From NCBI RefSeq assembly GCF_006345805.1, contig NW_021832528.1, forward strand, positions 1 to 64,000: a stretch of 64,000 nt of DNA. The letters run 5' to 3'. A program made the position numbers and the translations under genes. The stretch is from Octopus sinensis. Lineage: Eukaryota. Shown piece by piece: positions 2,864 through 58,538 of this stretch. Below the pieces are notes generated by a model that was given only the letters and a program-made list of their open reading frames with translations, ran no database searches and was not told where the DNA came from. The first letter of the stretch is position 1. Every line of letters begins with the position of its first letter.

Positions 2864-4548
2864 ATGATACGTGTCATGCACATTTGGTGGATTATCTACT
2901 CGGTGTATGCCCTGGAAATCCTAAACGTGGAGAGTCACGTGCGGATGAGGGGGGGACTGGTGGAGGTGACAAGCACAATGGAAACAGACTCGGGAAGTGA
3001 GGGACTGTTGCACTGCATATCGCCGAAGTATGTGAGGAATGTGTCGTCGGCAATGGTATAGTGTTGTGAGAGGTCAGTTAGTGGAAGAAGGACTGAGCCC
3101 TCTGAGGGAGTGGAATGGGTGTTATGAAGTGCCAGTGCGGAATGGGAGAGTGAGGATATTGACAACATTGATGGGAGTGGGATGTGCGCGGGAGGAGGGT
3201 GTGGTCGTGACATGTAGTGTGGTGACTGAGTGGCAGTGAATGGGGTGGTCTACTCTCCCTACCCAATCAGACGACAGTCGACTGTCATTCACGGCACATT
3301 CCTCGACTATGAGAGAGGAGTGTTGGAGGGGAATACTCTGAGGGTGGACACACTGGACGTGCCCCCCTACTCCCAAGTACTCCCTCCCCTCATTGCAGGA
3401 TGACCTGTCCGTCTACTTGCTGGCCGACGACCCCCAGCTGAGCATCACACAGTACAAGCGGAGGATTGCCATATCGCAGTGGGGGACAGTGCAGGTGAGT
3501 GAAGTGGTCGAGTTGGTCGAGTCATTGGGGAGACAGGTGTCTTCGGTGGTGACGCGTGTGCCCCTGGGGAGTTCCCGGGTGTATTTCCGTGACCAAGTGG
3601 GGAATATCTCGACGAGTGCAGTGGACGGGCAGTTGGTCACTCTCACATTCCGATTCCCCCTCCGCAGTGGGTGGAACACACAATTCGAGTTTGGGTATCA
3701 ACTCCCCGCCCATTTGTGTGTGCACGTCCGTGGTTGGCCTGGTCTGTCAGTCTAGATGGACAATATGTGTTTGAACACTCCCTCATGTCCACCTTCTTCC
3801 AACACCAGTCCGTCCACAACATGCAATTGGAAATTGTGTTGCCACCTCACTCCACGGGTGTCCTCATCCACACTCTCCCTGTCCAGGCAGGCAACTATTC
3901 CGCACATCTCGATGTCCTCTCCCCTCGACCCACACTCCTTCTCACTGCCACCAATCTCAACCCTCTCCACGCACAACACATTCGCGTACTCCACATGCTC
4001 ACTCCTAGGTCGCATACACTCACTCCACTCACATGCTACTACTCAAGCCTCTCCTCCTCTCCCTCTTTGTCCTACTCCTCTTTGCTCTCCTCATCATTCT
4101 CACACGTCTCCACTTGCCCATCCTCCCTCCACACACTTCACACTCCCCCACCAATCAACTCCTCACCCTCATCCAACGAATCCTCGACATCTCACACTGC
4201 CAACCAACCATCGACGCATTCAAACGCTCTAAGGACCACTCCTCTTTTCAACACTTTCGCACACACTTCGATCGGGACATTCTCCACTTGACCAATCAGG
4301 TCATCGCCATCGAACAACACATCACCACTGGCATCGACCCTGTCCTCGACCATCTCCTCGCCAGTTCCAACAGAATGCGCGAATTGCTCGCCAAACTGAA
4401 TGTTCTCCTTCACAAAACGATGGTCAATGCGGGCAAGTTGGTGAGTGATGTCATGTCTCCCTCCGACTACTCTGCTTTCGAGATTGACAATATTGCCCAG
4501 CGCACTGATCTGGTCACTGCCATCGAGAACATATTGCACGATTTGTGA
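2864..4548 (+). CDS. RPN1: Ribophorin I (oligosaccharyltransferase subunit 1), about 6 exons
   Basis: Signal peptide; YSPYP, RRIAISQWG, YFRDQVGNISTS and RFPLRSGWNTQFEFGY motifs; TM helix LLKPLLLSLFVLLLFALLIIL; frames joined by 22-23 nt GT-AG introns. Confidence 0.9.
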
Positions 4549-4583
4549 TCTAATTCTCTAATCATTTGGTTTATTAGAATTAA

Positions 4584-5033
4584 TTAGTTGTTTTGGGGTG
4601 AGCGGACGACCCTCGTTTTGGAAAAGTATCCAACTGGAGGGGGGTGGATGCCCAACTCCTCGGACATGCACGAGTCAAAGTCCCGGCGGTATTTGCGGCA
4701 TCTACAAGTGAGTGGAATGTGCTACCGAGTTATGTCCATCAGGCTGCCCGACTCCAAGTCGATGCATTTGGCATATTCCTGGAAGGACTGCCCACAATGC
4801 TTCCTTATTTGCCCAAACAGTTCGACTCCGCACTTTGTGACGGCCACTCCTTGGGCAATGCACTTCCGGGGGTCCTTCTCTTCTTTGGAGCACAGCATGA
4901 ATTCCTTCGACTGCCGGTCACAGTATGCCCCAAAGTGGAGTGCCCCTGCTCGCAGAGAGGGCGAGGACAAGTTTATTTCCTTCGTCGCCAGTTCTTCGTC
5001 TGAGGGAAACGAGACTTGGCTAGTTATGACCAT
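4584..5033 (-). CDS. NDUFA8: NADH dehydrogenase 1 alpha subcomplex subunit 8
   Basis: Twin CX9C pattern, KEFMLCSKEEKDPRKCI, CRKYRRDFDSCM; one 24-nt intron. Confidence 0.9.
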
Positions 5034-5082
5034 CCACACACAAGAAATAAGTAATACTAATTTTTTATTCAATTTAAATTAT

Positions 5083-5857: not shown

Positions 5858-6514
5858 ATGAATGTGTTCCGTTTGTTGGGCGACATGTCTCATTTGTGTG
5901 CGATGGTGGCACTGTTGTGGAAGATGTACAAGACCAAGTCGTGTCTGGGTATGTGTGTGGTGGGACGAGTAGGCGTGTCGAGGAAGACCCAAGTGCTGTA
6001 CGTGTGTGTGTTCGTGTGTCGCTACGGGAGCATGTGGTGGGTGTATGTGTCCTTGTACAACTCGGTGATGAAGGTGACGTATATCCTCACCAGTCTGGCC
6101 ACGGTGTGGGTGATGGTGTTCAAGTACGGCAGCACATTCGACAAGAGAAACGACACTTTTCCCTACGCATACTTGTTGGTCGGCTGTGCTGTCCTCGCCC
6201 TCCTCGTCACTCGGCAAGTCCGCCTGGCCTTGTGGACATTCTCCCTCATGCTCGAGTCCGTGGCCATGCTCCCCCAACTGTTCATGATCACCAAGTCGGG
6301 GGAGGCACACACCATCACCTCCCACTACATCTTCTTTATGGGCATATACAGACTATTCTACATTTTCAACTGGGTCTATCGATACTACACTCAACACTTT
6401 TTCGACATCACCAGTGTCGCCACCGGCATACTCCAAACCATCCTCTACCTTGACTTTTTCTACCTCTACGTCTACACTGTCCTCAAGGCCAGGAGTATGT
6501 TCATTCCACTCTGA
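5858..6514 (+). CDS. KDELR: ER lumen protein retaining (KDEL) receptor
   Basis: MNVFRLLGDMSHL, LWTFSLMLESVAMLPQL, TITSHYIFFMGIYRLFYIFNW, QTILYLDFFYLY; in-frame 24-nt intron at 5949-5972. Confidence 0.95.
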   Translation: MNVFRLLGDMSHLCAMVALLWKMYKTKSCLGMCVVGRVGVSRKTQVLYVCVFVCRYGSMWWVYVSLYNSVMKVTYILTSLATVWVMVFKYGSTFDKRNDTFPYAYLLVGCAVLALLVTRQVRLALWTFSLMLESVAMLPQLFMITKSGEAHTITSHYIFFMGIYRLFYIFNWVYRYYTQHFFDITSVATGILQTILYLDFFYLYVYTVLKARSMFIPL

Positions 6515-7220: not shown

Positions 7221-7833
7221 ATGTGGTTGTGGGACTATGTGAAGGACATGTTGAAACAGCTGGGTAGTGTGATAGTTAGAAGTGTAAGGACTGATGAACA
7301 AGTCGGGGGTGATACTACTACTGGGAATAGATGACGCAGGGAAGACGACTCTGTTGCAGTATCTGAAGACAGGGGCAATGCACACACACAACCCGACTCT
7401 GCATGCCAGTGAGGAGTGTGTGGTGAGGTAGATTGTGAGGAGTTGACGATGGGGGGTGTGAATATGCAGGCGTATGACCTGGGAGGACACGAGCAGGCTC
7501 GGCGAGTGTGGAAGGACTATCTGGTGACAGCGGATGCGATCGTGTTCATAGTGGATGCGGCAGAGAGGAGTCGAGTGGAGGAGGGGAGGGAGTGTCTGCA
7601 GGTTGGCCCGTCCCCCATTGCAGTCCGTGCTCACCTCCACCAACATTCCCGTGGCAGTGCTGGCTAACAAGGTGGACAAACCAAATGCAATGGGGCCTGA
7701 CGAGTTCGTGCACACCTTCGGACTGTACGGACACATGAAGGCACTCCGCCCTTTGCAAGTGTTCATGTGCTCGATAAAGAAGAGACACGGCTACCAGGAA
7801 GCATTCGCGTGGTTGGCCAACTACATTAAATGA
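7221..7833 (+). CDS. SAR1: Small GTPase Sar1 (COPII)
   Basis: GIDDAGKTT, DLGGHEQARRVWKDY, NKVD, LQVFMCSIKKRHGYQEAFAWLANYI; three introns of 22-25 nt. Confidence 0.95.
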
Positions 7834-7839
7834 TGTTAT

Positions 7840-8869
7840 TTAATAAAGCATTAGTCGTTCCAGCACGTCCGTGTTCAGTCGCAGGTACTGCAGACGGTAG
7901 GCAGCCGGGAGGCCTGTTGTCTTGCCGCATTGGTGACACGTTATGTCCCAGAACGTCGACTTGAGTTGTCCCAGCACACACCTCTCGCACATGTTGTGCA
8001 GACAAAACAGGCGCAGAGGCCGTCTGTTCACGTTGTCGAACCTGCCTGTCACACACACACCATACACACACGCACTGCCGCAACACGACAAGTACTCCGC
8101 CGACTCCAATTCACACTCCGGAATGTCCCCCCAGTTCGGCATGCTCCACGCTGATGGAAAGTAGTAGGGGATTACACTCGCACTCTCGATACTACTCAAC
8201 ACTGATTGTCTGCTCACTCTGCCCTCACCACTCACACTTACATGCTCACTCCGCTCTTCCTCCCTGTCGAGAACCCACTCCTCATTGTCGATCCACTCAC
8301 TGACCCTTCATTGGAAACCACTCCACTCCTCATTGATCCATCATTGGAAGGGCACGACTCCTTGTTGACCCTTCATTGGAACCCACTCCACTCCTCATTG
8401 ACTCCTGACTCGAGACCACTCCACTCCTCATTGACCCTCCATGGGAAATTGTAGAGGCAACACTCCTCACTGATCCGTGATTGGAGGAAGCACCACTCCG
8501 CACTGACCTTCCCTGGGAAATTGTAGAGGCAGCACTCCCCACTGATCCCCCAGAGGAGACTACACTCACTGACCCGTCATTGGAGGGGACGCCACTCCGC
8601 ACTGACCTCCCATGGGAAATTGTAGAGGCAGTACTCCTAACTCCACTTGTGAGGGATGCCCGACTGGACACACTCTGCACTCCACTGTGGACACTCCCCC
8701 TCACTCTTCTGATGATTGGAGGGGGATGAATATATTCGGTTGCTTTATAAGAGTATAGACTGTGTTTGCCCCACTCGGAGGAAGTGTCCCCATTAAGACC
8801 GTCCATTGATTGTGCGACCGGGTGGGTGGGCTTGCACACATCATTCGACTGGCTGGCCGATCTGCGCAT
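7840..8869 (-). CDS. Ser/Gly-repeat protein with C-terminal RING-HC finger
   Basis: RPLRLFCLHNMCERC...ITCHQC RING pattern; internal tandem repeats at about 8270-8640; intron GTAAGT...GCAG near 8220-8241. Confidence 0.65.
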
Positions 8870-9479
8870 TACAAAATCGAGATGCTGTGTAATCAGTATT
8901 ACTATACAGAGTTGGGTGTAGGACAGTCAATCACACTTTCATTCCCCATCCGAAATAATAAATGCGCAACACAGGGCTACAATTCTAAAATATTATGAAA
9001 TGCAAATCTTTATTTTTTTACTTCAAATCACGTTAACCACCATAAATATATTTATTGTTTTTAAACAATTAAAATTGTTGTGGGAATTATTTCTAACAGT
9101 GTTTTATATGATCTGTTGGAGAGAGTTTATTTCGGAAATGAAAACAGTTATGTCGATAAAATATCTGACCGCATTTTAATTGTAATTGATTAGCACATTC
9201 CTTCCATTTTTGTTTAATCCCAAATTATCACTAACCTATTCTTCGTTTTCAAAAGTAGGATCCATTATTTGGACTTGCTGCATTTACATGGTATTCGGAA
9301 ACCTAAGTATATTTATTTCAAAATTCTTTTAATGAACGGGAAAAGTTACACAAATTTTGCAATCTTTTATAATTTGTTTAATAATTGGGAGTTTTAAGTA
9401 AAATAGAATTCACAACACTTCTTATGATGCTTTTGTATTCCCCAGTGGCATTCTTGGTGAATATCGAATGTCTTCATCC

Positions 9480-11650: not shown

Positions 11651-11826
11651 CTCCCTTTCTTGACGGGGTTCTGGTGAGGGATTGTTGAGGAGACTAAACC
11701 ATCAAATTAGTCGAATAGCAGTGATCCCGTTGAGTTGAGAGATTAATTTTGTACCAACTCAGTTGACAAGTGTGGCTAACTTATAGTACATGGGGAAGAG
11801 GGATATAGGAAAGAAGTGTTAGTAAA

Positions 11827-12686
11827 TTATTGTTGAGGGGGAGGGCGTGGCTGCCTGAATGCGTTTTGTATTTGTTCGACAGCGGCAGGATTGGTTTCCT
11901 TCAACTGTTGAGCGAACTGTTGTCCCCTGTGAATGAAAGAGAGAGAGGACATTTGCATGAGTGCGGAGAGGTCGGGGGAGTCATTTCCCTGGAGGAGATT
12001 GCCGACCATGGACTGCATGTTGGGGTCACTCATAAGCTGGGAGGCCTACACATGAGAGAGGGGGAGACTATGCTCATTATGTCGGGAGTGTCCCCCATCT
12101 CCCTCTTGGCCAACTGGAGGTTGTCCTTGTAGGAAGTCTTGGTGTCGTCCAACTGCACGGCCATTTCGAAGGCCTGGACAGCGCGGGGGAAGCGATTGGT
12201 GGCCAAGCAGGCGGATCTGTGGTGAGAGGGGGAGAATACCCGACTCGACCGTACGCCTGAGCATAGTTGGGACTCAGTTGGACTGCCCTCTCCCCGTCGG
12301 ACAGTGCCTCCTCGTACCGTCCCAGATTATAGTAGGCCGCTGATCGGTTGCTGTAGTACGTGCTGAGTGGATTGGCCTCAATAGCCTTGGTGTAGCACTC
12401 CAATGCCTCACTCGCCCGTCCTCCCCGGATGCACTCATTCCCCCGCTCCTTCCACTCCTCCCCCTCCTTCTTCCTCTCCTCACTCACTTGCATTGTCCAA
12501 TACAACTCCTCCAGGTTGTACTTGCTGTACTCCTCCTTTCCTATCTCGAATGCTGACTCCAAACACTCCACAGCCACTGCAATCACACACACTCTTACCT
12601 TGCAGGCTCCCCGATTTGTCCTCCGATAGTGTCAATGCCTTTCCCTTCACGAATTCGATTATCGCCTTCACTAGTTCACGTTCCAT
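11827..12686 (-). CDS. SGTA: Small glutamine-rich TPR co-chaperone (SGTA/Sgt2)
   Basis: N-terminal dimerisation motif LVKAIIEFV...SLQVAVECLESAF; three TPRs (KERGNE...YYSNRSAAY...YAQAYGRVG); C-terminal MSDPNMQSM/GQQFAQQL. Confidence 0.9.
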
Positions 12687-13352: not shown

Positions 13353-14300
13353 ATGTGGAACTCAGAACAGGTCGAGAAGATGCGAGTGGGAATGTGTGTG
13401 GGAGTGTGTGTGGTGGAGCAGAGCAAAGACCAGGAGGGGTCAAGACGAATGCAGGAGAAAGTGGAGTGCGTGGAGGAGAGGGAGGGGATATTGAGGGAGC
13501 TGTTGGGGAGTGCGTACAGTGTAATGACGGATGTGTTCGGGAACTACGTAATGCAAAAGATGTTTGAGTGTGGGAGTAAAGAGCAGCGGGAGAGACTGGG
13601 GGAGGAAATGAAGGGACGAGTGTTGTCGCTGTCTCTGGACATGTACGGGTGTCGGGTGGTGCAGAAGGCGATCGAGAGTGGGTGGAGGGGGACGATCGAG
13701 GAGGAGTTGAGGGGACACGTGATAAGGTGTGTGCGTGACCAGAACGGGAACCACGTAATCCAAAAGTGCATAGAGTGTCTGCCCGACGCACAGTTCATCA
13801 CACAGTCCTTGAAGGGGCAAGTGTACTCTCTGGCCACACACCCGTACGGATGTCGGGTAATCCAGCGGATACTCGAACACTCGCCCCTCATCCTCGACGA
13901 ACTCGCCCAACACGCCCTCACTCTCATCCACGACCAGTACGGCAACTACGTCATCCAACACCTCATCATCCAACACCCTTCCCACATTCACACACTCCTC
14001 CCCCTCATCCAGGGACGACTCCTCCACCTGTCCATACACAAGTTCGCCAGCAATGTCATCGAAAAGTGCATCATCCACGCCTCCCCACACATCCGCGCAC
14101 GACTCATCCACGAAATACTCACTCACGGATTCTCTTCACTCCTCAAAGACCAGTACGGCAACTACGTCGTCCAGATTATGCTACAACTCGCACACCCCAC
14201 ACACCGACACATCATGCTCGACACCATCAAGGCACAACAACACGTCCTCAAACACTATACTTATGCCAAACACGTCCTCGCTCGCCTCCGCATTAGTTAG
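13353..14300 (+). CDS. PUM: Pumilio-family (PUF) RNA-binding protein, PUM-HD only, intronless ORF
   Basis: Eight PUF repeats with recognition motifs SRRMQ, NYVMQ, CRVVQ, NHVIQ, CRVIQ, NYVIQ, SNVIE, NYVVQ; ends YAKHVLARL. Confidence 0.93.
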   Translation: MWNSEQVEKMRVGMCVGVCVVEQSKDQEGSRRMQEKVECVEEREGILRELLGSAYSVMTDVFGNYVMQKMFECGSKEQRERLGEEMKGRVLSLSLDMYGCRVVQKAIESGWRGTIEEELRGHVIRCVRDQNGNHVIQKCIECLPDAQFITQSLKGQVYSLATHPYGCRVIQRILEHSPLILDELAQHALTLIHDQYGNYVIQHLIIQHPSHIHTLLPLIQGRLLHLSIHKFASNVIEKCIIHASPHIRARLIHEILTHGFSSLLKDQYGNYVVQIMLQLAHPTHRHIMLDTIKAQQHVLKHYTYAKHVLARLRIS

Positions 14301-15227
14301 TACATTCTAATCCTCCTTTATCCACACTTTTTCGGCATTCTTGCTTATTACTTGTGCATACCATTAAATTCTTTCACTATTCGGCACTCCTTTTATTGCC
14401 TCGTCCTCCCTCTTTGTTTGTAAAGACTGCTTAAAATACAATAACTGCAGACAACACATGTCCATTAATGTGGCAGGAACAGGGCTTCATAGACAAGATT
14501 TTGCGCTATAAATTGATATTGGTGGAGACTTTGAACTCATTTGAGACAGAATATGCTCTTTCTAATTACAGGAAGGTGAGTTGACTTGTTGTATTCCCAA
14601 GTCATGTGATAATGGGAGAAGACCCGTGCTGCTTTCGGTGGCTCGAGGAAAGGTCTCTGAGAGGATCGACTTTGGTTTTTTGCTTGTTTTTTTATTTTGT
14701 AGAGAACTACTACGGACGGGCTGTAGTCATGTATGGAGTGCCCTACGTGTACACACAAAGTAGGATTTTAGCGGTGAGTTGTTGGGGGATTTTAAAGGCA
14801 GGCACAACTTGAGTTTCTTAGGAGAATTTTTGTATTTCTGAATCTGAGTTTTTGATGTTTGATGCAATGCGACATACAGCACAGTGTGTGAGGAGAGTAC
14901 TAAGAGGGATTATGGAATAATTATTTTTGACGATTTTGTTTTTTGGTATTTTTTAAAGTTTTAGAGATTTGCGCGGGGAGATAAAAAGTCAAAATTGCCG
15001 AATTGGATTCTTGAGAATTTGCCAGATTCGTTGAGTGATTTGTCGATAGACGAGGCGATTCAAAACGCTAAACATTTTTTAACATTATACTAGTCCTCAC
15101 TTTTCGGCATTCTTGCTTATAATACTCAGACAATTACTTAATGCAATAATTTGCATACCATTAGAAAATAACCGGTTCTTGCTTATTACTTGTGCATACC
15201 ATTAAATTCATTAGAAAATATTAATTA

Positions 15228-16635
15228 CTACTCCGGACGAATGAAGGAGGAGGGGACGTGTCCCTGTGCGTCGTCTGAACGGGCAACATATGACCAGCCA
15301 CTGGAATCTTCGTAGAGTATCTCCACCCGGTCGCCCTGACTGACGGAGAGAGTGCCGGGCTCGTCCACTGAGAATGAGAGTGGGGAGGACTGGAAAAGTC
15401 TTGTAGGATGGTGCCGAAGTGTGTTTGCACGTCTTGACTCCACTCGGAGTCGTGTGTGCAGTAGAAGGAGGAGCTGAGAGCGAGGAGTTGGTCGTGTGCC
15501 TAGAGTAGGGAGAGGGAGTACGGGTTGGTCGAGTTTGAGGAGTTGTTGCATGCCGGCGGAGAATTGTTGAGTGATTTGAGTGAGCCTGGTCTGGACAGTG
15601 CGGACGTCTCCCATGTGTGGGTTGTTGGAGTAGAGGTCGAGCATAGAGCGCATGCCAATGCTAGGGTGAGTGTGAGATGGTACATGGACTTGACGTGTGC
15701 GTGGAGGGTGTTGACGAGGGAGGTGATCTTGGACTGTGACTTTTTGGAGGGCTTAGGTTGGTCGAGTGGGCCCAAGTCTTGGAAGAGGAGTGGTTGGGGG
15801 AGGGGGGACTGTGGGTAGTGGGTGGAGAGGAGGGCAGTGAGTGTGGATTGGGAGAGGGAGGTGTGCTCGACTAAGGACAGTAGACTGGAGAAGGACTGTC
15901 GGAGAGAGTCTTGGAGTGAGGAGAAGAAGGTGAATTGAGCAGTCAGTCGTTGGTCCAAAAGGACTTGCAAGTCTTGTAGGATTTGGTGGATGGTTTGAGT
16001 GATGGTCACGTGACACAACTGGTTGTAAGTGGAGATGGCTGTCCGACACTCCGCCTTGGCCTTGTCACACGTCTGTGCCCTCTCCCTGTACACTGCCCTC
16101 GACTTTTCCATGTCGTTGACCGTGTTGGACTTGTCGGATTCCGTGTCCTTCATCACGGCGAATGCCTTCCTTCCCGCGTTGAATGCGTTGGAGTATCTTT
16201 CGACGGCCTACACTGCCATGCCACCACTACCGCCTTGGCCGCACTCTCCCCCCTGCTCATTTCCGTCGTCGCACTCTCGTATCTCTTCACTACTCGCTTG
16301 TGGCTCTCCTTCTCCCCCCCCGTCACCTTCCCCTCACACACACGCTCCAGCTCCTCCCCCAACTTACTCAACAACTCCAACACCCCCACAAAACTCTCGC
16401 ACAACACATTCACCCCCTCATGCTTCCCTCCCCCGTACTTTTCACTCATTTTCCTACATCTACACACACACTCACTTTAGTCGCCCTCCGAACGAACGAA
16501 ACTCGCCCGACAGTTCCTTGCTCAGCTTCCCCATCTGCGACACTGACCAACACGTCTTGTCGTCCCACCACGCCAGACGATTGAAACTCTCCTTCACGTC
16601 ACCATACACACTACCCACAACGAGTAGTCCCACAT
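15228..16635 (-). CDS. F-BAR/HR1/SH3 protein of the CIP4/FBP17/TOCA family
   Basis: N-terminal MWDYSLW, helical F-BAR region, HR1 motif MLDLYSNNPHMGD, C-terminal SH3 (LSVSQGDRVEILYEDSSGW...GHVPSSFI). Confidence 0.8.
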
Positions 16636-18197: not shown

Positions 18198-18924
18198 ATG
18201 TCTGGTGACGTGGTGGCGACATTCAAGTTGGTGATACTGGGTGACGGGGGGACGGGGAAGACGACATTTGTGGGGCGGCACAAGTCAGGGGAGTTCGAGA
18301 AGAGGTACATCGGTAAGGAGTGTGTGTGATGGCAGCGACGGTGGGGGTGGAAATAACGACTCTGGTGTTTCACACGAACAGAGGGGCAATACAGTTCAAC
18401 GTGTGGGACACGGCGGGGCAGGAGAAGTTCGGAGGACTGCGGGAAGGCTACTATTTGCAAAGTGGAGTGGTCAGTGTATTGCAGGCAACGCGGCAGTGAT
18501 AATGTTCGACCTGACCTCCCGCATAAGCTACAAGAACGTGGAAAATTGGCACCGTGATTTGACGAGGGTTTGTCCGGGCATTCCCGTCGTGTTGTGCGGG
18601 AATAAGGCCGACGTGAAGGACCGGAAAGTGAAGCCGCGGATGATGAACTTTCACCGCAAAAACAACGCGGCAGTAAGTGTTGTCCCTCACTCAGTGCTTC
18701 ATCATCTCCGCCAAGAGCAACTACCAAATCGAGAAGCCCTTCCTCCTCATCATGCAACAGTTGAGTGGCGACAAACATCTCCAACTCGTCAAAGCCCCTC
18801 CTCTCCTCCCCCCACTCCTCTCCCTCGATGTCGACGCCGTACAACGCTATGAACTGGAAATGCAGGTTCTCCTTCCTCACCACCCAAGAACGCACAACAC
18901 ACTGACCTCCCGGACGACGACTAA
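18198..18924 (+). CDS. RAN: GTP-binding nuclear protein Ran
   Basis: [54 protein letters not shown], acidic tail DLPDDD; four introns of 22-23 nt. Confidence 0.95.
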
Positions 18925-19200
18925 TTCACTCTTTTTTCCTGTTCTTTTGTTACTCTCCTCTATGTAGCATATCCTGCGACTGCACTCTTTAGACTGAATG
19001 TGCACTATCTTATATCCAAGGTGATAAGAGTGCGGGACGTGCAGTGGGGCCAATTGGAGAGTATAGTATTCTCCCCTACCGCCCGTGAATAGCGTATAGA
19101 GCAGTGGGACACTCTCAATGGACAATAGCGTGAATTGCGCGATGAGCATTGATTAATAAATATGCGCATTCTCATTATTTCGTGGTCTATTTAAAAGTGA

Positions 19201-22200
19201 ATGTTGGGAGACCTGTTGAAAGGGGAGGAGTTTTACGTGTGGGATGAAGGAGAAAAGTGTGGGAGGACGGTGAGTACAGTGCGACTGCACTCTTCGCGAA
19301 TGTTTTTGACAGTAAAGACGAATTTGGTAGACGTGGTGAGTGATTGTGAGGAGGTAAAAGTGATCGACTGTTGTCGGGTGCGTGACGTGAGGAGGAAAGA
19401 GTGGGGACTGCAAATGTGGCTGGGATGCGACGTGGTGAATTTGAGTGGGGTGAACATGGCTTGCAATTCGGAGGAGAGGATAAAAGTAGAGGGATGTGTA
19501 ACGTGGAGAAATGGTGGGGGTGTTTGTGTGGAGTGGTGTTCGACCCGGTGTTGAACAATTTGTGTCCACAGGACATAATAGTGAAGCAGTGGGTGTGGTT
19601 GTGTGAGGAGTAGGTTTATGATGCTCGAGTCGATAAGGACGGCGGAGGGAGTGGTGGACGTGCGCAAGTAAAGTAGTGTTAGGGAGAGTAGAATTATTCG
19701 GTTTTTCCACGGGAAAATGAGCGAAAAGAGCATTCGCCAAGTACTGAGCCAAGAGGAGGTGTTGAAGGTGGTGAGTGAGTGGTGAATGCAGGGGAACGAA
19801 CTGTGTGGGGAATTCGACGGTGAGCTGTGGAGGGAACTGATGGACAAGTTTGTGGACAGGCCGGACATTGAGGAAATATTCAGGAAATAGTTGGAATGAT
19901 TGGCAGATGTGCAGTTCGAATGGGAGGGAGTGGATTGATTTGGAGTCGCTGGTGGAGTTCATAAACGAGGTTGATGTGAGTGTTAAAGTGGCAGACACAG
20001 CGGGACAGTCGACTGAATACAATCCTGTTTCCCCTCAAAACACGGGAGGAGTGTCTGGAAGTGATCGAGCGATTCGAGAGTGACCCCGAGAACAGAAGAA
20101 AGGGTGAGTGAGTGTGGAGGAGTGTAGAACGGCTGGGTGTGCGTGGGTTCGGGGAGTACCTGTCGTCGAACACGGCGATATCGGCAGGGAACCAGGTGGG
20201 GAAATGTGAGATGAGTGAGCCACTGTGCCACTACTTCATAAACTCGTCGCACAACACATATTTGGTGGGGAGACAGTTCGGGGGCAAGTCCTCTGCGGAG
20301 ATATACCGAAGCATTCTGATTGCGGGGTGTCGATGCGTGGAGTTGGACTGTTGGGACGGGGACGACGAGCCGATAATCACTCACGGACTGGCTGCCTGCA
20401 CAGAAGTGTTGTTTAGAGTAGTGTGTGGGTGGACATGTTAGGACGTGGTGAAGGAGATAAGTGAGTCTGCCTTCATCACATCGGACATGCCCGTCATTCT
20501 CTCCTTCGAGAACCACTGCAGGTGGTCTATTGGGATATTCCAGTTACAAACAACAAAAGAAGATGGTCGACTACTGCATTTCCATATTTGGTGATCTGTT
20601 GCTCAAGGACTCCCTCGAGGACTACCCGTTGGAGGAGGGAGTGCCTTTGCCCTCTCCCGCCTCACTCCGACGCAAAATAATAATCAAAAACAAAAAGACA
20701 CAAAAGATAGTGGAGGACATGGACACAGAAGGTTGTCTTGTGTAGTCCACGAATAGTCAAGTATATTAGTGAAGCACAGGACGTGGCAGAAGTGATCAAG
20801 GCCTACAAACGACAACATGCCACCACCACTGTCCACCCCGAACTGTCCTCCCTCATCAATTACGTCCACTCCGTCAAGTTCGCGGGGTTCCAGGCCGCGG
20901 CGGGTGAGTACCATTCACACACTCATTAGAAAGAAACTACCATTTCCACATTTCCTCATTTGCGGAGAACGCGGGCTACGGACTGATCAAGAACAGTGCC
21001 CAGGACTTTGTACGACACAACAAGAAACAACTCACCAGAATATACCCAAAGGGGGCCCGCTTCGACTCATCCAACTACCTCCCCCAGGCAAGTCCGCCTC
21101 ACTATTTCAGTTGTTTTGGAACGCGGGCTGCCAACTGGTCGCACTCAACTGGCAGACCGCAGGCCCCTGGATGCAGTTGAATCAGGGCAGGTTCGAGTAC
21201 CACGGAAACACGGGCTACATCCTCAAACCCTTGTGCATGCGCTCGCCTGACCAAACCTTGAATCCCTTCACCGAGGCCACCATTGACGGCATCATCGCCG
21301 CCCAGTGCTCCGTCACCGTTCACTGTCCCCAATACCCTTCCCAGGTCATTTCCGGCCAGTTCCTCCACGACAGGAAAATAAGCACTTTTGTGGAGGTGGA
21401 AATGTACGGCCTCCCCACCGACACGATCCGGAAGGAGTTCAGGACCAAGGTCGTCCACTCGAATGGAATGAACCCATTCTACCGAGAGGACCCTTTCGTC
21501 TTTCGCAAAGTCAGTCCTCCTTTCACCCCAGGTCGTGTTGCCCGAGTTGGCCATCCTCAAAATCGCCGTCTACGACTGGAACACCAGCAAACTGATCGGG
21601 CAGAGGCACCTCCCCTTCGAACTGATCGAAAACGGTTAGACGGAGGAATGACCCGTAGGCTACAGGTATGTGGTGCTGAGGAGTGAGGCCAACACTCCTC
21701 TCAACCTGCCGACCCTGCTCTGCCACTTTGAACTGGGCACGTACATCCCCCACGCACACGGCGGTTGGTCTGCTCACTCACACCAGACATCGCCGACGTC
21801 CTCTCCGACCCCACTCGCTTCCTCTCCGACGCCGAAAAGGCCAGGAAGATGCTCAACTACATGGGAGTCGAGGACAACGACATCGAGGAGGACTACTATC
21901 AAGACCTCCACTTGCCCACCATCGACCAACTCAAACACGACACCGAATACATCTCTCTCCACAAACGCTCCCTCGCTGAGTTGGCCGCCATGAAGCAGTC
22001 CTTCATCAAACGCAGAATGTCCATCAGCAAGGACCAATGTCACACCTTTGTCAAAAAGATCTCCAAAGTCAAACACACTTCCCAAGAGGTCCCTCCTCTC
22101 ACCCATTTCTAGCAAATCGCCAAGATTAACGACTTACAAAACTACAAGTGGAGAGCCCTGGTGGCCCAGCAGGAGAACCAGTTCCTCCACAAAAAACAGG

Positions 22201-22660
22201 AGATGTGCACTGCACTCTTCAACAAACTCTCCAAACTCGCCCGCAAGTCACACCAACTATTCCGCAAACAACTCGACTGCAAACTCAAATGGTTTCACTC
22301 ATTTCTCATCCAGTATGCTCGACCAAGTCACTGAGAGACACGCCAAGTCCGTCCTCCACATGGACAACCTCAAACACCTCCCAAGCCTGAAAAAATACGG
22401 TTCCTCCTCTTCCTTATCTCAGACGACGTAAGGAAATGCAGGACGAACGACTCAAACGATTCATCCAAGACCGCCGACATGTCGAAAAGGAACGAGACCA
22501 CCTCGAAAAGTACTGGAATGCCGCCATGGCCTCACAGATCGACCAAATACAGAATGACTATGATCACGTACTCCACTCCTCACACACTCAGGAATGCCTC
22601 ACTCTCCGCCTCAAGAAGAATACACTCGACCTGGAAGACTGCGACCACGCATACGTCTGA
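19201..22660 (+). CDS. PLCB: Phospholipase C beta (PH-EF-X/Y-C2-coiled-coil), many micro-introns
   Basis: [45 protein letters not shown]...[24 protein letters not shown]2 [20 protein letters not shown]; one apparent homopolymer frameshift near 22390. Confidence 0.92.
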
Positions 22661-22759
22661 CTTTTTGTATTTCCATAACACTCAGTCCTCTTTACTTTGT
22701 CCATTAGTTAGTCATAGTAAACTCCCCAATAAAATTCTTGCCTGGCAACGAGGGAATGG

Positions 22760-25126: not shown

Positions 25127-26150
25127 TCAGTCACGAGTAGGGGGATAGGGAGAGTAGTAGCGGAGGGGAGGGTAGGCCGTGCCGCCAATGTTGAGGGAGG
25201 CAATGTCCAGGTCGTCGTGAGGACAAAACATTTGTTGGTAGTACATCCTGGCCTGGGAAGGACTTTGGAAGAGGACAGAGGGGCGCTTCCTGTCGCGGGG
25301 GACGGCGGTGGAAATGTGGACAGAGCAGTGTTTGATGACCAATTCCCTGCCAACGAGACTGGCGGCGACTTGTGGGTCGGAGAAAGTGACGAAAACAAAA
25401 GTCCTTGGGGGGAGGGGGACGAAGACGTCGATGACTTGTCCGAACTGTGAAAAGAACTCTTCAATGTCGGCCTTGTCCAAAGTGTGGTCGACTCGGCCGA
25501 CGAAAATCCTCCTGCGCAGTTCGTGGTCGTGGGGAGTGAGTGCCCGCAGCCTGGAATTGGGGATTCTGACTTTGCAGTGCCTTCCGTCGAGTTGGTGACA
25601 GGCGGCCAGACAGGCGAGCTGGTCCTCCCACTCAGTGAAGCGGACAAAGCCATATCCCTTGGGTCGGTTGGTGTTCATGTCCTTCTTTATCTACTCCTCC
25701 CCCACAACACACAACCTCCACCATGGCCACTCGCCCGAAAGTCTCAAAGTACTCTCTCAGTTGCTGGGAAGTGTAATGCCACGGCAGTCCCAGGATTATC
25801 AAGTCACTGCACTCCCGATACTCCGCCCGTCTCTTGGACTCCTTCGCGTACACTGTGTGGTACGTCAGCTCCCCCCACCCTTCCCTCGGGGCAATCAGCA
25901 GGTCCTCCACTCGCCGCACTACTCGGAACGGGTCGCTCGTCTTTCTCCTATATTTCAGTCCAGACGCGTAGCCGAATTGCGTGTTCAGAGTCCCCACCGA
26001 CAAGTTTCCACACTTTTCCAATGGCAGTTCAATCACCTCCGAACAGTCGTCCTCACACACCTTCACAAACTCCGACAAGTTTCCACACTTTTCCAATGGC
26101 AGTTCAATCACCTCCGAACAGTCATCCTCACACACTCTCACAAACTCCAT
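25127..26150 (-). CDS. TARDBP: TDP-43 orthologue (NTD plus two RRMs)
   Basis: NTD EFVRVCEDD..VIELPLE...QFGYASGLKYR; RRM1 SDLIILGLPW...KGYGFVRF; RRM2 IFVGR...RTFVFVTF; one 25-nt intron. Confidence 0.92.
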
Positions 26151-29336: not shown

Positions 29337-29347
29337 TAACAATTTAT

Positions 29348-31706: not shown

Positions 31707-31827
31707 TTGAGTGGCGTCCGTGTCGTTGTGAATATGACTGGCAAGGCAGCCGTCTTAATTGTGTCGCATTTCATTGGCCCATTTATAGTGCGTCATCTTG
31801 CAACTTAAATTTTATTCCCAGGCAACC

Positions 31828-37599: not shown

Positions 37600-39370
37600 T
37601 TAAATGTCAAAGAACCCAAAAGGATTATTTGTCGGCTCCTGAAAGATTTGGTTGGTGGCATTTTGCTGTTGCATGGGTGGTCTCCCCGCGGGATTTGAGA
37701 AGGTCATTTCCGGAGCCGTCATTGCAAAATTATTTTGTACATCGAACATTCCAACCTGTGTGTTTGGTTGTTGCATTGGTTGTGCTTGCTGAAACATAGG
37801 CACTGGTTGCTGCTGTTGAAATGGACATGTCAGTTTTACCCAGAAAGTCCCCGATTGGCCCATGGACTGTACTGGGTCGAGGGTATTCATATTGAGAGGA
37901 TTGGTGCCTCGTGGTTGGGGAGTGCTGTACATATTTGGTTGTGTTGTTTCGTGGGCGGGCTGCATCAAATGTGAATGTTCACTGTTCTGAGTGTTGCTTG
38001 GACCAAACATGTCAAAACTACAATTTGAGCGCAGTGTACATTACGTTTGAGGAGAGACTTGATTTAGTTTTTGGTCATTGACAAAAGACGAGTCTTCAGG
38101 AAATAAGAATTCGTAATTGTTATCTGCAGAACGGATTTGTTCAGACTGACTGAGAACATTCGGCGGACGATTGCCAGTCATGTCTAAAAATAATCAAGAC
38201 ATTTTAATGACCAAATAACAAATCTTCAAGATCGCCTTTGTCAGGCTGCGGTTGAGTTTGTGGAATTTCTTGTTCCATTATTAAAAGTGGCTTGTCATTA
38301 GAACTAGGCATTATTAAACAAGCTGCACTTTAAATATGATTTCATTTCATCATAAACCCTCTCTTCTATCAACTCGACTGGAATCTCAACATTAAGCAGT
38401 TCCTGAGTGTAAGCGAAGACTTATACTTTGGCGTTCTCAAAGAGACTGGCGAATTCCTTCTGATGTCGCAGATAGCACTCAAACTCGCGCAATATTTGTT
38501 GTCCTGTGTTCTTGTCGGCGTTGTAGAACTCCTCTACGGACTCGAGTGACTCAGACAACTGAGGAGGATTGCCAACACTTTGTTGTAGCAGCAGTAGGCT
38601 TTGGAGACATCCTGGTACATCAGGTTGAAGATGAAGAGAAGCATTTTGGAGGAGAAGGTGTGTTTGTGAATCTAGGGTAGATCGACGAGCGTACTTGCGT
38701 GTCGAACGTGGATGTGGAGAGGGAATTCAGGTTGTTGCAAATGGGAAGCAACTGAAAAATAATGCAACCACAAATTACATCTTTAATCGTCTTGTCGTCA
38801 AAGTTGAGACTAGATTAGAGACCTATTAGTCACCTCGCCAAAGATTTCGTGACATCAAAGCCCAGTCTGTAGTAGGTCTCCAACTTTACCTTCAAATAGG
38901 CTGCGTAATGCTCGAGAAAATTGACGATAGTTCGATCTATCACTGCTTACAGGCCTCACTACTTTGCTCCTTCACGAGTTCGGAAAAGTTGAACAAATTG
39001 GAAAATATGGACAAGTTGGAGGTGAGGTAGAGGGCGAATCTCTAAAACAGTAAACCTGGACATGTCAACGTCTTCCCCATTTATCAGCAAATAGTGGATA
39101 GTCATCAAACTCTTTGTCACCACCAACCAGTTGGGACTGACCAGTCGTTGTTGTAGGGCCGACACAAAGTCAGGCATCGAAGTGAGCGAAGTGCGAGTGT
39201 ATGCTTCCAAGGCTTGTGGGTCAATTCTCATTACCACAACCCATCAAATGCTTTTCCTTCGGAGGGATCTCTTCTTCCGTAGTGGCCTTGACCACCGACT
39301 TGGCCAGAAGATCGCCTTTGACGATTTTGATTGCACTGTCATATCTGTCTTTGATGCTCTGCCGACTCAT
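37600..39370 (-). CDS. PICALM: Clathrin assembly protein PICALM/AP180 (ANTH domain)
   Basis: MSRQSIKDRYDSA...KSVVKATTEEEIPPKEKH, NWLVVTKSLMTIHYL, Q/P-rich tail ending NNPFGFFDI. Confidence 0.85.
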
Positions 39371-39883: not shown

Positions 39884-40302
39884 TTAGTCAGCCACTGTCG
39901 GGTTGGGAGGAGAAGGCGTGGCTTCCCCCTTGGGGGAGTACTTGTTGGCAATCCACACTGCAGGATGACTGATGATGACAACCTGAGCCGACGGTGATGA
40001 GAATAGCGAGGACTACTCCCAGACAAATCATCATCTGAGGACTCCCGAACACGACTAACCTTTATGTTCTTCCACCAATATTTTCGTTTCAGACGTGCCG
40101 CGGAGACGTTGAAGTTGGAGGCCCCTTCTTGGAGTGCCTCGGCTCGCCCGCCCAATTCGGACAACTGGACATCTCGCTCCAAGACTTTCTCGACGTTCGA
40201 CCTCATGATGTCGACCACCTCCTCCACTTGTGCTTGGGCCATTTCCAGTTTTTTGTTGGGTTGTGGGGGATTCCTAGAATTGGAAATGACAATCAGCAAC
40301 AT
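39884..40302 (-). CDS. VAMP: Synaptobrevin/VAMP R-SNARE
   Basis: [28 protein letters not shown]...[11 protein letters not shown], then [21 protein letters not shown] after two 25-nt introns. Confidence 0.92.
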
Positions 40303-44625: not shown

Positions 44626-46741
44626 ATGTTCGGAATAGTGGTTGATCAAGAAAATACGAGTTTTGTAGACGACTATGCAGAGTTCATTAACACACAGTTA
44701 GTTTGTGTTGTAATGCAAGATTTGGATATTTGGTGACCCCCCTGAATTGGCTGGGGGAGAGTGGAGAGTACCACATCAACGACATTGAAATGGGCCGTGC
44801 ATTCCCTGGTTGATAACCCGTGTTACATTAGACTGGCAACACAAAACACAAATCAGGATTAATATTTCGACAGTTTGTGCCTCCCCCACTTGCGAGGAAT
44901 TGGAGAGAAATCTGAAAGTGAGTGTTGTGGTGATGGAAGGGTTATCTGGACTACTTGGGGTACTGCGAATACTTGGAAGTGAATGTGATTCATTTGGAGG
45001 GGATTAGTTGTGGTGTGAATGTCATCCAGACCGTGATGGCCACTCTCGAACACTTCAAGGGGACGGTTGTCTTTATATATTATTGCTGATTATTGTACAA
45101 ATGGAAGGAATGAGTTCGGAGTGGTGGCACTGCTGGAATAATATACGAACATGTTGTGGGTACAACCCTCTTCTTGCTCTCTCTCTCCTTCTCCCACCCG
45201 ACCTCCCTCATCACCTCACCACCTGGTTTGCCGAGCCTGTCAAAGTCCTCATTCTCACTCCTCCAGTCTTCATTACCCACCAAACTGGCCAATCCATTCT
45301 GTCCGATCAACACAGCCAAACTGTCATTTCATTCTTTAAGGTCACTCAGACTGTATATTTCAGAATTCATGTGATGTTGCTCTTTCTGGGTTTGAGATGG
45401 GGAATAAATTGACACAACAAGTGCACGATTACCTGTCCTTTCTTAAGAGAAAAAGTGGGGAGTTTGCTTCTGTTTTTGAGGAATATGCCCAGCAATATAA
45501 CAATATTCTCCAACACCCCATCCAAGTTGCCACTTTTTGACAATCTCAGCCTCTCAGTGAGAATTTGTCCACGGATATGTACAGGACGTTCGAACTCGAC
45601 AGGGTTAAGTATGACAAGTACCAGCAGGTAATAATATTCATTTGTAATTTCATTTATACCATTTTAAACTAAATTCCTTAATTATATAATGTACTATTAT
45701 TAATAATGATTATTTTAAGGCAGTCTACCATGCTCTTCTGGACCTGGTGTCGTTTGATGAGAAAGCACATAAAGTGGTGTGAGTGACCTTCCTGGCCATA
45801 GTTTAGAACAATCGTGGTGGTGGGGGCAGGGAGGGGTCCCCTGGTGACCTCCTCACTGAAGGCAGCCCAGTCGGCGGACAGGAGAGTGAGGATCTACGCA
45901 GTGGAGAAGAACATGAATGCAGTGTCCGCGTATGACACAACCAGCTATTTAAGATTGCAATATTTGAATCGAGTTGAGTGGAATGGACAGGTGCACATCA
46001 TTTCGGGGGATGTCCGCCACTTGTCCTTCCCAACCAAGGCCGACATCATCCTTTCCGAGTTGTTGGGCTCCTTCGGCGACAACGAACTGTCCCCAGAGGT
46101 CCTCGTTGGCTTGGAACGTCATCTCTCCGGTTGTCTGTTTTCCGTGATTGAGGAAAAGGGAATAATGATTCCGCGGTCGTACTCCTCCTATTTGTCCCCA
46201 ATCATGTCCCATAAATTCTTCTGTGAGTTGTCCTCCTTCGCAGACCGGGTCATTTTCGTTTGAGTACTCCAGAATGTGTACCACGTGATGTATGTCGTGA
46301 GGTTACTCAGTTTGTACACCATTTGCCCCCCAAAAGAGGTGTGGGGGTTCCTCCACCCTTCCAAGGGTTCATTTCTTCTCTCATTTGGCCAGACTCCACT
46401 TCCAGAATGAACATTTTGGAGTTTGAGGTACCGCGGGCGGCAGTCCTCCACGGATTCAACGGGTTTTTTGTGGCCAATTTGTATAAACACGTGGATCTGA
46501 GTATTTTGCCTGACAGTCACACTCCGGGACTGGTCAGTTGGTTTTCCGTGGTCTTCCCGTTGGAGGTATTCGTGGGTGACCTGAGCAGAGCCCCGTCGAG
46601 GTGAGTGCCGGGCAGACCATTCGACTGGCCATATGGAGGAAGGTTTCGGGGGTGAAGGTCTGGTATGAGTGGATGTTGCGCAGTCCTGCCAATTCCGTCA
46701 TTCACAATCGCAACGGATGTGCTGATTCCATGCATTTGTAG
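44626..46741 (+). CDS. PRMT5: Protein arginine N-methyltransferase 5
   Basis: QHPIQPLSENL...YRTFELDRVKYDKYQQA, VVGAGRGPLV, YAVEKN, SELLGSFGDNELSPE, KVWYEW...IHNRNG; micro-introns plus one 92-nt AT-rich intron at 45628-45719. Confidence 0.93.
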
Positions 46742-46894
46742 ATACTTTTTGTACTCTTTTGTTCTTGTCCTTTAAATAGCCACCCAGTTTAATCCGTGGA
46801 AATTGTAGGTTAAGGAACTCAAGAACGGCCTCTCATAAAGATTGCATCAGACCTCACCGAATTGACAAAAAGTGAATTTCTGGACTAAATTACG

Positions 46895-55257: not shown

Positions 55258-55263
55258 TATTAG

Positions 55264-57331
55264 CAGGGTTGTTAAAAATCATGATTTTTTTCAAAAAAAT
55301 CAAAAAAATCTGATTTTTTTGATTTAATCACGATTTTTTTGATTTAAATCAGATTTTTTTGAATTAAATGATCTTTATTTCAAAACGACCCTTTCCACCT
55401 GGCTTATCAGAGAACCTCTCTCTTTGTACATAAACACTGAAAAACGGCCACGCAGAACGATCTATCGTAGTTCCTTATGTCCACCGGGATCACTTAACTA
55501 GTTTGCATTACGCTTTTTCTTTGTGGTCTTCGGGTTAATAAATAAAAAAATATTTCAAAGCGAATAAAATAAAAAACAAAAACAATGGAAATCGTTTTTA
55601 TTTATTTAAAAGCTTGTAAATGGAAACAAGTTTGGCTGCTTTTTCGATCCCCAGCCTATTGCGTACATTTGAATGTAGAAATCCGAATGTTGAAAAGATT
55701 CTTTCTATTCCACCTGTCGAAGCAACTGCTCCAAGAATTTTTTTGCATAGTGAAATTACTTGTGAAGGTAACTGGTATGAATTCGACTCCCACCAAGCTA
55801 TAGGTGATACTTTACTCAATAATTCGGAGCAAACATGTATTGTTTAAATGGATCAGCTTTTGCTCTGAAATTAATCAGAGTCGGAAGTGCATATTCATAA
55901 TTTTGAGCAAATAACTCAATGCAATGTCAATCTCAACATTTGAAAGAGATTTCCCACTACATGTCGGGTCGATCAAATTCGCAAGTAAGTGGAAAGGTGT
56001 TAATGCTTGTTTTGCTCGAATTCTCACTTTTCCTAAAATATTCGTACATCCATTGTCAATATATGTCTGTTCAAGTTCTTTCCAAATTTCTACAGCATGA
56101 CTAATCGTGGTAGAATCATTCTGAATTTTATCTAAAGCGACAGCAATTGGTTTAATAAGCATCAGATATTCTTCAACGCGTCGTTTTAGGGAAATATTTT
56201 GGACCTTGGAAAAAATCTCTGTATCAATATCCGTTCTGTGTTCCTCACAAGTTCTCAAAATAATAGACCAATTATCCAGATAAGATTGAAAACAGTCTGA
56301 TAAAGTGTTCCACCGTACATCAATCGGAAGAACGAGTTTTTTTCCTCCATTAGATTTGTACCATGCAGCTGGAAGATGGACGTTTCGGAAATATTTATTG
56401 ATTGTTACAATAGTTCCTTTAACGTCCGCTACCTCGACATCCTTCACAAGAAGGTTGAGATAATGTGCCGAGCAACCATAAGTAATTATTTCATTGCCAT
56501 CTTCCATCATTATCCGTCTCATTTTAGTCATGTTGGCAGCATTATCCGTTACAAGACTGCCGATTTTACATCCAAACCGTTGTTCAGCCAATTGTGCGGA
56601 GGCTAAAGCAACAGATTGAAGATATTCCGCAGTGTGGCTATATCCAGAAGTGTCCACAGTGTCAATGAGATAATTTTCCCCATCGGATGTCACAACCGAG
56701 ACACAAATAACGGGTTCATTATGAATGTTGCTCCACCCGTCCAACATCATAGACACTGTTTTGTCCTGGAGTCTTTGTCGACAGTCTTCATGTATTTGGT
56801 CGTACACATGATCAAGTAATGTACCACCAATTTGATGACGAGAGGGTAAACGATACCCAGGAAGAAGCATTTGGACGAATTTGACAAATTCGGGATGTTC
56901 TACAGCAGCAAACGGAGTGTTTGTAGAAAATATGTATCTAGCGAGTTGCAGATCCATCAAATCTTTCTTAGATGAAGTCGTCGTAGTTACGAAATTGATT
57001 AATGAATGGTCCTTCATCCTTGGAGGAAATTCGCTTTCAGGTCTCGGCATATTTTCAGGGATATCAATATTACTTCGACATAATAAATGATGCTGCCTCA
57101 TCCGAGATACAAGACCTTGTATGTCCTTCCCACAATTACGACATCTGGCACGGCTTCCGGTCTTTCCAGGAATAATACGTTTATCAAAATAAGCCCACAA
57201 AGAATCACGCTTCTTCCAGACATTTAAAAAAATTTAAATGATTTTTTTGATTTTTTTGATTTTTTTTAATGATTTAAATCATTGATTTTTATTGTTGATT
57301 AAAATCAAATGATTTAAATCTAACAACCCTG
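55264..57331 (-). mobile_element. hAT DNA transposon with BED-finger transposase, near intact
   Basis: Perfect 11-bp TIR CAGGGTTGTTA / TAACAACCCTG; 8-bp TSD CATATTAG at 55256-55263 and 57332-57339; DGWS, TDNAANM, CSAHYLNL, RWN, ERIFS motifs; subterminal GATTTAAATC/GATTTTTT repeats; frameshifts near 57210 and 55880. Confidence 0.95.
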
Positions 57332-58139
57332 CATATTAGTAGCAACTTCTTGAGTGAAAAATACTAACTTGAAGCCGAATAAATAAATTTGTCATGAAAT
57401 AAAATGAACAAGTTTTGTTATCTCTACTCTCTACTCTTCGGGTGTAGTTTGAAATTACCAAGATAATAAAATTAGCCGAACAAGTCAATCGGATTTTGGT
57501 GATCTCGGCCAAGAGGAAAAGAATTACGCTTTTCTTTAAAAAAATAAATCAAAATATCATAATAATTATTTTATAAAACTTAGTAAAATCCTTTATTAAT
57601 CCAAGAAATCATTAAATTAGTTAAATTTATTTTAAATTCCTTTTTCTAAATAGTTTTTCCAATTCTGATTACTGGTTGAGTTTCCTCTCCTCCTCGGCAT
57701 ACTTAATTAAAAGTAGAACAATACATATTCCATAAGTTTTGATCTTTTCACAAACATTGCTGCGACTTCCAGGTCAACTGCCGCTTTTTTGTCTTCGTTC
57801 TTGGCTTTGTTCAGCTTTTTCAATTAAAATGTTTATCCAATTCAGTTTTAGAAGAGTTGACTCCACTTGTACTTTTAATGATTAATTTTACGTTTTAACT
57901 GACACCTTGATTTCGGATTTGAAATCTTTCGGCAGGTGTGCCATTAAAAGTGTTTTTTATTCCGAATAATTTATTATTTAAAAAATTATAAAATTAATTA
58001 AATGATATATCAAGTAATTGCTATGATACAAATTATCAAATATTTTAAAATAATGTAGTTTTATCAACACAAGTATATATTTTAATTATAAAATAAATAA
58101 TTTTAAATAAAAATAAATAAAACGTGTTAAATTAGTGTC

Positions 58140-58538
58140 ATGTTGATCTCTCAGTTGTGTCGCCGGTGGAATATAATAGCGTAGGGATTATACCTTATAT
58201 TAGACACTCCCAAAGACAGTGTCAGAACGTCCCGTGGGATCCTTCCTCGAGGTCTCAGGGAGCCTCCGACATAACCGACTTATTCGACGACAAATACTGG
58301 AAAGTATCCCATCCTGACTATTCAGATGTCCGACCAGCTGTACGTCTCAGTCAAGCAGTTCAATGGATCCAACAATGTCAACATCCGACGATACTTCGAG
58401 ACAAACGGGAGGGTTTTCCCCACCAAAAAAGGTGCTTTTCTCCTTCTATTTTTAGGAGTTTTTTTAAATCTTGAGCAGTGGAATCACTTCAAGTCCATTA
58501 TCGACGAAATTGATAAGGCAATGTGTACTCAGGATTAA
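58140..58538 (+). CDS. SUB1: PC4/Sub1-family ssDNA-binding protein
   Basis: YVSVKQFNGSNNVNIRRYF...PTKKGVFLNLEQWNHFKSIIDEIDKA; introns of 23, 22 and 24 nt. Confidence 0.85.

Follow-up and report, generated by a model that had tools for sequence, protein, structure and literature searches.

Micro-introns of 21–29 nt in a probable dicyemid contig within the Octopus sinensis assembly

The first 64,000 nucleotides (nt) of contig NW_021832528.1 in the Octopus sinensis assembly GCF_006345805.1 (forward strand; the window) carry conserved genes whose reading frames are broken by segments of little more than 20 nt. The locus raises the question of whether these segments are spliceosomal introns, how introns so small could be recognized, and to which organism they belong. 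The answer proposed here, with a probability of about 0.8, is that they are real GT(GC)-AG micro-introns, likely from a dicyemid, and likely removed by a U2-type spliceosome of the ordinary kind that operates close to its lower size limit.

A Pfam scan of all 446 stop-to-stop frames of at least 55 amino acids (aa) recovered about 20 conserved genes split into short frames, and removal of the modelled introns restored the reading frame in about 14 complete models. Further support was provided by contigs from X1 and X2, two runs of one study that are not on record as RNA and that supply all the support counts given here; two other runs, X3 and X6, gave nothing on the window and were set aside. 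These contigs span both genes and transposons, and since they lack the coding-strand GT..AG pieces of 21–27 nt, they behave as complementary DNA (cDNA). Their comparison with the window gave cDNA-like support to 36 modelled introns of 21–27 nt, median 23 nt: 12 as explicit deletion rows, two as loose ends, and 22 by length sums, in which the shortfall of a contig piece against the genome equals the total of the modelled introns (the gap rows read were 12 out of 47 and 12 out of 29, and the net length of each listed contig piece was used besides). In PLC-beta, for example, X1 is shorter over 20160–22180 by 240 nt, which equals ten modelled introns, one of them GC-AG; three of the PLC-beta introns need one additional inserted base for the sum to agree. 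The original prediction had asked whether cDNAs keep these segments, and the 36 introns are gone from the X1/X2 contigs at the modelled junctions. The GT(GC)-AG segments of 21–27 nt are real spliceosomal introns.

The supported lengths are 21 nt (one intron), 22 (seven), 23 (14), 24 (eight), 25 (four), 26 (one), and 27 (one). A further 50 introns were predicted from frame switches, 22–29 nt long apart from one of 92 nt, so that 85 of the 86 modelled introns measure 21–29 nt (median 24), which is typical of dicyemid ultra-short introns; the modelling was aimed mainly at 20–29 nt, and long introns are under-counted. The 85 short introns comprise 84 GT-AG and one GC-AG, with no U12-type 5′ consensus. 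Because the DRC1, PRMT5, PICALM, and RhoGAP models have no full open frame, their predicted introns were inferred locally. Ambiguous introns were kept outside the counts, namely those in RhoGAP near 30480, in PRMT5 near 45526, 45774, 46130, and 46566, PICALM 38962 with the 3′ introns of that gene, the DRC1 5′ introns, one PRP8 junction, two alpha-tubulin calls, and TOCA 16614, which entered the skew analysis only.

The four introns that had been named as examples lie where they were placed. RAN 18313–18335 (23 nt) is a 23-nt deletion in X1, and RPN1 3377–3398 (22 nt) a loose end in X2 that matches the next exon. SAR1 7409–7431 (23 nt) is not among the rows listed, and its flanking exons match residues 22–58 and 62–112 of human SAR1A in different frames; RAN 18866–18888 (23 nt) lies past the end of the listed contig piece and is based on the open frame.

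The 5′ sites were described as degenerate, and so they are, with 60 different hexamers in the 85 short introns and GTRAG (R, purine) in only 12. The wider claim that almost no consensus is left was overstated, since several positions are far from random. An A occurs at +3 in 38 of the 85 introns, the exon has A at −2 in 56%, and 72 end in YAG (Y, pyrimidine). At +16 or +17 an A is found in 33 of the 36 supported introns, against 12.4 ± 2.7 in shuffles, and out of sample in 31 of the 49 short predicted introns, which were modelled before the test, against 19.4. A TNA trinucleotide (N, any base) with its A at −6 to −10 is likewise enriched (21/36 supported introns vs 10.0 in shuffles; 31/49 predicted vs 15.4). 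In the 53 introns with a single candidate TNA, the distance from the 5′ end hardly changes with intron length (slope 0.03), whereas the distance to the AG grows with it (slope 0.97); the branch-like TNA proposed earlier is therefore positioned and enriched, but it is fixed from the 5′ end and not from the AG. In 80 of the 85 introns, the first AG that ends at position 21 or beyond serves as acceptor, and all five exceptions skip a GAG.

Recognition by length, another element of the original prediction, was overstated in view of what the exons contain: within the 8,275 exonic nt under X1/X2 contigs, 173 GT..AG stretches of 21–27 nt are retained, compared with 33 true introns. A position model trained on the predicted introns, tested on the supported ones, and using length together with the A at +16/+17, YAG, +3A, and exon −2A among its features distinguished introns from held-out exonic decoys with an area under the curve of 0.967. 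The decoy test and the positional statistics indicate that the signals are weak and spread out rather than absent, and that length alone does not define an intron.

The introns have no polypyrimidine tract, as first noticed, the pyrimidine share being 0.55 at +3 to +12 and 0.57 at −14 to −4 (p = 0.25), so that the 3′ side is no richer than the 5′ side. A G-to-C skew along the genes explains why some introns look as if they had a tract and others do not. The GC skew of introns is +0.52 in the first third of the gene and −0.42 in the last third (rho −0.58), and fourfold-degenerate sites pass from +0.77 in the first tenth to −0.84 in the ninth tenth, on both strands. The switch falls at 0.29–0.66 of gene length in 12 genes between 3 and 30 kilobases (kb), and amino acids shift along the genes at 2876–30014, E/V/G/W from 0.33 to 0.13 and H/T/L/P from 0.15 to about 0.3. 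Further along, VAMP and PC4 show little or no skew. A window-wide island test is weak (20 G-to-C vs 14 C-to-G), and a proteasome-subunit gene beyond the window, at about 102.9–103.7 kb of the same contig, has the reverse skew with C-rich first and G-rich last introns, which together suggest that the pattern is regional. As to its origin, transcription-linked mutation or repair from AT-rich spacers can be offered as guesses. In the literature listings searched, there was no report of gene-polar G-to-C skew in animals, nor of nuclear GC skew in dicyemids. In unicellular fungi, the available text of McLean and Tirosh (2011, PMC3315797) describes opposite GC skews at gene ends that likewise switch within genes and touch fourfold sites and amino-acid choice; the fungal skew runs from C (5′) to G (3′), whereas the genes at 3–30 kb here run from G to C, in an animal.

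The components of the splicing machinery do not establish the modified spliceosome that had been invoked for these introns. A U6 of 100 nt, present on contigs C2675, C2687, and C12638, keeps ACAGAGA, AGC, and the internal stem-loop, with a shortened 5′ stem-loop. Candidates from the same organism for PRP8 (C8697), SF1 (C8459), and U1-70K (C8695) of the major spliceosome are found on small contigs, although among these contigs only those of U6 are tied to the window's contig (C8999) by shared repeats. Across the main aligned pieces, the small-contig PRP8 and the host copy are 60–97% identical. In SF1 the U2AF65-binding motif reads SRF, where 74 of 81 matched homologues have a W (SRW), a residue that we take to act in U2AF65 binding. 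A U1 match on C9998 was rejected as parasite U1, being a truncated copy in microsatellite-rich DNA.

These elements can be arranged into a mechanism in which the intron would be recognized as one unit (intron definition). The weak 5′ site, with its bias toward exon AG followed by GTA, would be paired with a branch adenosine about 16–17 nt downstream, usually within a TNA, and scanning would then select the first AG, other than a GAG, that lies 5 nt or more past the branch A. Without use of a polypyrimidine tract, the remaining intron bases would follow local gene composition, G/T-rich early and C/T-rich late, and minimum distances of about 16 + 5 would set the size floor at 21–22 nt.

Two other accounts of the segments have to be set against this mechanism. 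The contig seems to have single-base errors, with many 1-nt insertions in X1/X2 at 34956–36872 and one near the PLC-beta end (about 22314–22399), and assembly errors or pseudogene indels might be blamed for the segments as well; yet the deleted pieces start with GT or GC, end in AG, and restore the frames of the complete models, and they are missing from independent contigs, which refutes this account for the 36 supported introns and makes it negligible overall. The narrow lengths (29 of the 36 are 22–24 nt), the many 5′ hexamers, the SRF of SF1, and the shortened U6 stem would all suit a modified spliceosome that gauges about 23 nt from GT to AG directly and uses no internal signal. This is nevertheless rather unlikely, given that the 173 exonic decoys stay in the contigs, that A at +16/+17 and YAG are strongly enriched, that the same contig has introns of 31 and 92 nt and probably one of 363 nt, and that the catalytic elements of U6 are unchanged.

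To whom do the introns belong? The window is the start of a contig of 274,785 nt within a 2.72-Gb assembly with chromosome-size contigs, and its DNA is likely that of a parasite sequenced together with its mollusc host. PRP8, SF1, and U1-70K each come in two versions in the assembly, and the 18S in two kinds, with one of each pair on chromosome-scale contigs and the other on small ones. The 18S on the small contig C1618 has 1,667 nt, beside copies of 2.54–2.65 kb, lengths that presumably fit dicyemids and coleoids, respectively. A long interspersed nuclear element (LINE) at 26.3–27.4 kb has 92–99% identical copies on many small contigs and none on C1–C30 among the 42 matches listed (40 of 160 candidates scored). 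C8999 has no match to the chromosome-scale loci compared, is without the microsatellites of those loci, and shares 94–99% identical repeats with the contigs of the short 18S, the variant U6, RPS13, and one tubulin. The host SF1 exon finds its best named matches, by identity, in bivalves and gastropods (83–87%). The original prediction pointed to a ciliated metazoan, with dicyemids as a comparison, and this holds: POU, homeobox, innexin, EGF, and CNG genes on C8999 (150 of 364 frames scanned) mark the contig as animal.

The parasite is very probably a dicyemid other than Dicyema japonicum, judging from the genes on linked contigs. RPS13, on contig C7758, which shares 94–95% identical repeats with C8999, matches D. 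japonicum at 117 of 151 residues, 22 of them in one uninterrupted run (compared by eye); the identity of 77% makes another species likely. Its introns of 27, 26, and 25 nt lie at three positions kept in D. japonicum, with the same three others lost, and all three are conserved metazoan positions in the published alignment, for this linked contig rather than for window genes. Likewise, 9 of 14 PRP8 introns on a similar small contig fall where the chromosome-scale copy also breaks (by eye). Protein searches with Pumilio and beta-tubulin gave no dicyemid-named match, the best Pumilio matches being 50–53% identical, and a search with a 41-aa RAN exon matched only the window. As side observations, RPS13 has four near-identical copies on two contigs (C7758, C10384) and three PRP8 fragments (C8311, C9082, C12602) carry stops, suggesting duplicated or decayed segments.

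Several points weigh against a dicyemid whose ordinary spliceosome uses the A at +16/+17. The taxon is assigned from linked contigs, and the introns could be as described on a contig from a different animal parasite or symbiont with small introns, such as a myxozoan or an orthonectid. Myxobolid introns have a median of 22–27 nt in the part of PMC13644364 consulted, and the window introns are shorter (p = 2.5e-13) than the 29 introns of the PRP8, tubulin, and RPS13 contigs, which measure 25–34 nt (median 27) and are AT-richer; from these longer introns, two parasite species may be present in the assembly. This other origin is nonetheless quite improbable in view of the repeats shared with the Dicyema-like RPS13 contig, the molluscan matches of the host SF1, the DRC1-like ciliary gene, and the orthonectid median of 57 nt in the literature excerpts available. 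A 31-nt AT-rich innexin intron on C8999 shows that length varies within the contig and, with the shared repeats, favors variation within one genome. Length and GC content of introns are not significantly correlated within the window (rho −0.19, p = 0.09); pooled with the other contigs, they give rho −0.52. Parasite U1 and U2 RNAs were not found among the best 42–48 candidates scored, all of which were host-like, nor was any small nuclear RNA in 210 kb more of C8999; the U2 pattern missed even the host copies, which have an extra base there, so that the U2 blank is uninformative. The X1/X2 contigs come from one study of unrecorded kind and display only the dominant transcript form. The +16/+17 interval was picked on the cDNA-supported set, the putative branch role of its A derives from positional statistics against shuffles and decoys, and 20 of the 173 decoys meet the A at +16/+17, YAG, and first-AG rules, which implies that these rules are incomplete.

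The genes and introns of the window are collected in Table 1, where the name of the CX9C gene at 4584..5033 reflects a presumed similarity to NDUFA8.

Table 1. Genes of the window and their modelled introns
Gene	Coordinates	Strand	cDNA-supported introns	Predicted introns	Remarks
RPN1	2876..4549	+	3377-3398, 3733-3755, 3986-4008	3056-3077, 3214-3236	519-aa open frame
NDUFA8-like (CX9C)	4584..5033	-		4702-4725	
KDEL receptor	5858..6514	+	5949-5972		24 nt, in frame
SAR1	7221..7833	+	7264-7288	7409-7431, 7602-7623	Supported: loose end in X2; others by homology or frame
Unnamed transcript(s)	7814..8907	-	8042-8065, 8219-8241, 8885-8907		cDNA rows; provisional gene model
SGTA-like TPR gene	11822..12686	-	11927-11950, 12046-12068, 12217-12239, 12577-12598		cDNA rows
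Pumilio	13353..14300	+			Intron-free 13438-14281; decoy control; strong G-to-C skew
TOCA/CIP4-like	15226..16635	-	15500-15521, 15661-15683, 16208-16230	15368-15390, 16454-16475, 16592-16614	cDNA sum 68
RAN	18198..18926	+	18313-18335, 18462-18484, 18673-18694	18866-18888	cDNA rows
PLC-beta	19201..22663	+	13 (20418-20441 to 22568-22591)	7 (19486-20127)	20 introns, 22-27 nt
PLC-beta GC-AG intron	21088..21110	+			23 nt; required by 240-nt cDNA sum and open frame
TDP-43	25128..26150	-		25691-25715	
Katanin p80	27975..29291	-		29053-29077, 28929-28951, 28594-28617, 28304-28325	
Rho-type GTPase	29346..30014	-	29663-29685	29869-29894, 29444-29467	cDNA row
RhoGAP gene	30101..31775	-		Six, 22-26 nt	Incomplete model
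DRC1-like	32041..34071	+	33245-33269, 33592-33615, 33714-33734	Six, 24-29 nt	33714-33734 shortest (21 nt); incomplete model
PICALM-like (ANTH)	37600..39370	-		Four, 24-28 nt	Incomplete model
Synaptobrevin	39888..40302	-	40035-40059	39958-39982	
PRMT5	44628..46742	+		Seven, 22-26 nt; 45628-45719 (92 nt)	Incomplete model; outside run coverage
PC4	58140..58540	+		58181-58203, 58304-58325, 58432-58455	

Some further features were noticed along the contig. Weak X1 joints with GT-AG ends skip 90 nt (28860–28949) and 363 nt (41356–41718) on the minus strand; the former is at odds with the katanin model and may reflect alternative splicing. The 1-nt insertions at 34956–36872 and about 22314–22399 are either indel errors in the contig or a sign of other transposon copies of the hAT region. 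The tandem repeat at 8333–8926 is transcribed, with lengths that differ among X1, X2, and the assembly, and the TDP-43 N-terminal domain (25998–26129) has a near-exact tandem duplication of 22 residues, real or an assembly artefact. Remains of LINE, hAT, and integrase-bearing transposons lie at 26239–27434, 35188–36879, 53835–54663, 55601–57233, and 58660–59409. A methyltransferase domain of nodavirus type (PF19222, E 2e-17) at about 130.7–131.4 kb of C8999 is probably a fragment of an endogenous virus.

Micro-introns as a dicyemid trait are already published and ordinary for the group; what stands out here are the A fixed from the 5′ end, the comparison with decoys, the skew along genes, and the parasite genome hidden in the assembly. 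One tentative picture, rated below even odds, would join them: in an unsequenced dicyemid, a gene-polar G-to-C mutational skew may overwrite nearly all intron bases and leave GT, the A at +16/+17, and YAG as a 5′-anchored ruler, with the shortest introns (21–24 nt) in GC-rich skewed genes and introns of 25–34 nt in AT-rich genes of the same genome. If so, the contig would be a natural experiment on how small the code and the lariat of an animal spliceosome can be, with its SF1 having lost the U2AF65-binding tryptophan. GC-rich introns make the branch-like A measurable and thus provide a concrete test of a 16–17-nt lariat without polypyrimidine tract; how the animal spliceosome handles such lariats is a question left open in the consulted part of PMC13644364 (2026). 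In addition, a sizeable part of a likely dicyemid genome lies among the small contigs of the host assembly, where its genes would be wrongly annotated as the host's; a literature search for dicyemid contamination of octopus genome scaffolds returned no paper.

The closest likeness is to dicyemids themselves, in length, the GTa 5′ signal, the AG 3′ signal, a weak 5′-anchored A, and old intron positions, as far as the literature excerpts go. For D. japonicum, the sections available of PMC13644364 report a median of 24 nt, 5′ and 3′ signals reduced to GTa and AG, respectively, and a drift of A residues away from the AG as introns lengthen, and its supplement, in the portion available, gives a minimum of 20 nt and quantiles of 22/23/24/25/32 (Q10 22, Q75 25), which bracket the window set; the +16/+17 A may already be visible in the supplement's logos. 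From partial texts, other estimates are a median of 27 nt for Dicyema sp. (PMC6543705) and means of 38 nt for D. japonicum (PMC6736024) and 26.2 nt for D. acuticephalum (PMC2222250); PMC12953835, in the extract seen, has amplicons by universal primers and no usable marker. The window differs from D. japonicum in that its introns are GC-rich (0.47) and strand-skewed, so that the A at +16/+17 stands out, and in that the median is 27 nt on other contigs of the assembly. Myxobolids, for which the same part of PMC13644364 reports reduced signals with canonical U2 and U2AF, resemble the window in intron length; they are cnidarian parasites of fish, whereas the linked RPS13 here agrees with Dicyema and the host appears to be a mollusc. 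The 15–16-nt introns of Stentor coeruleus (PMC9505925, as excerpted) also combine a near-fixed branch A and a weak branch consensus with a U6 that keeps ACAGAGA, although Stentor is a ciliate with a loop of 10–11 nt and a strict GUA start, compared with 16–17 nt and GTA in 38 of 85 introns here.

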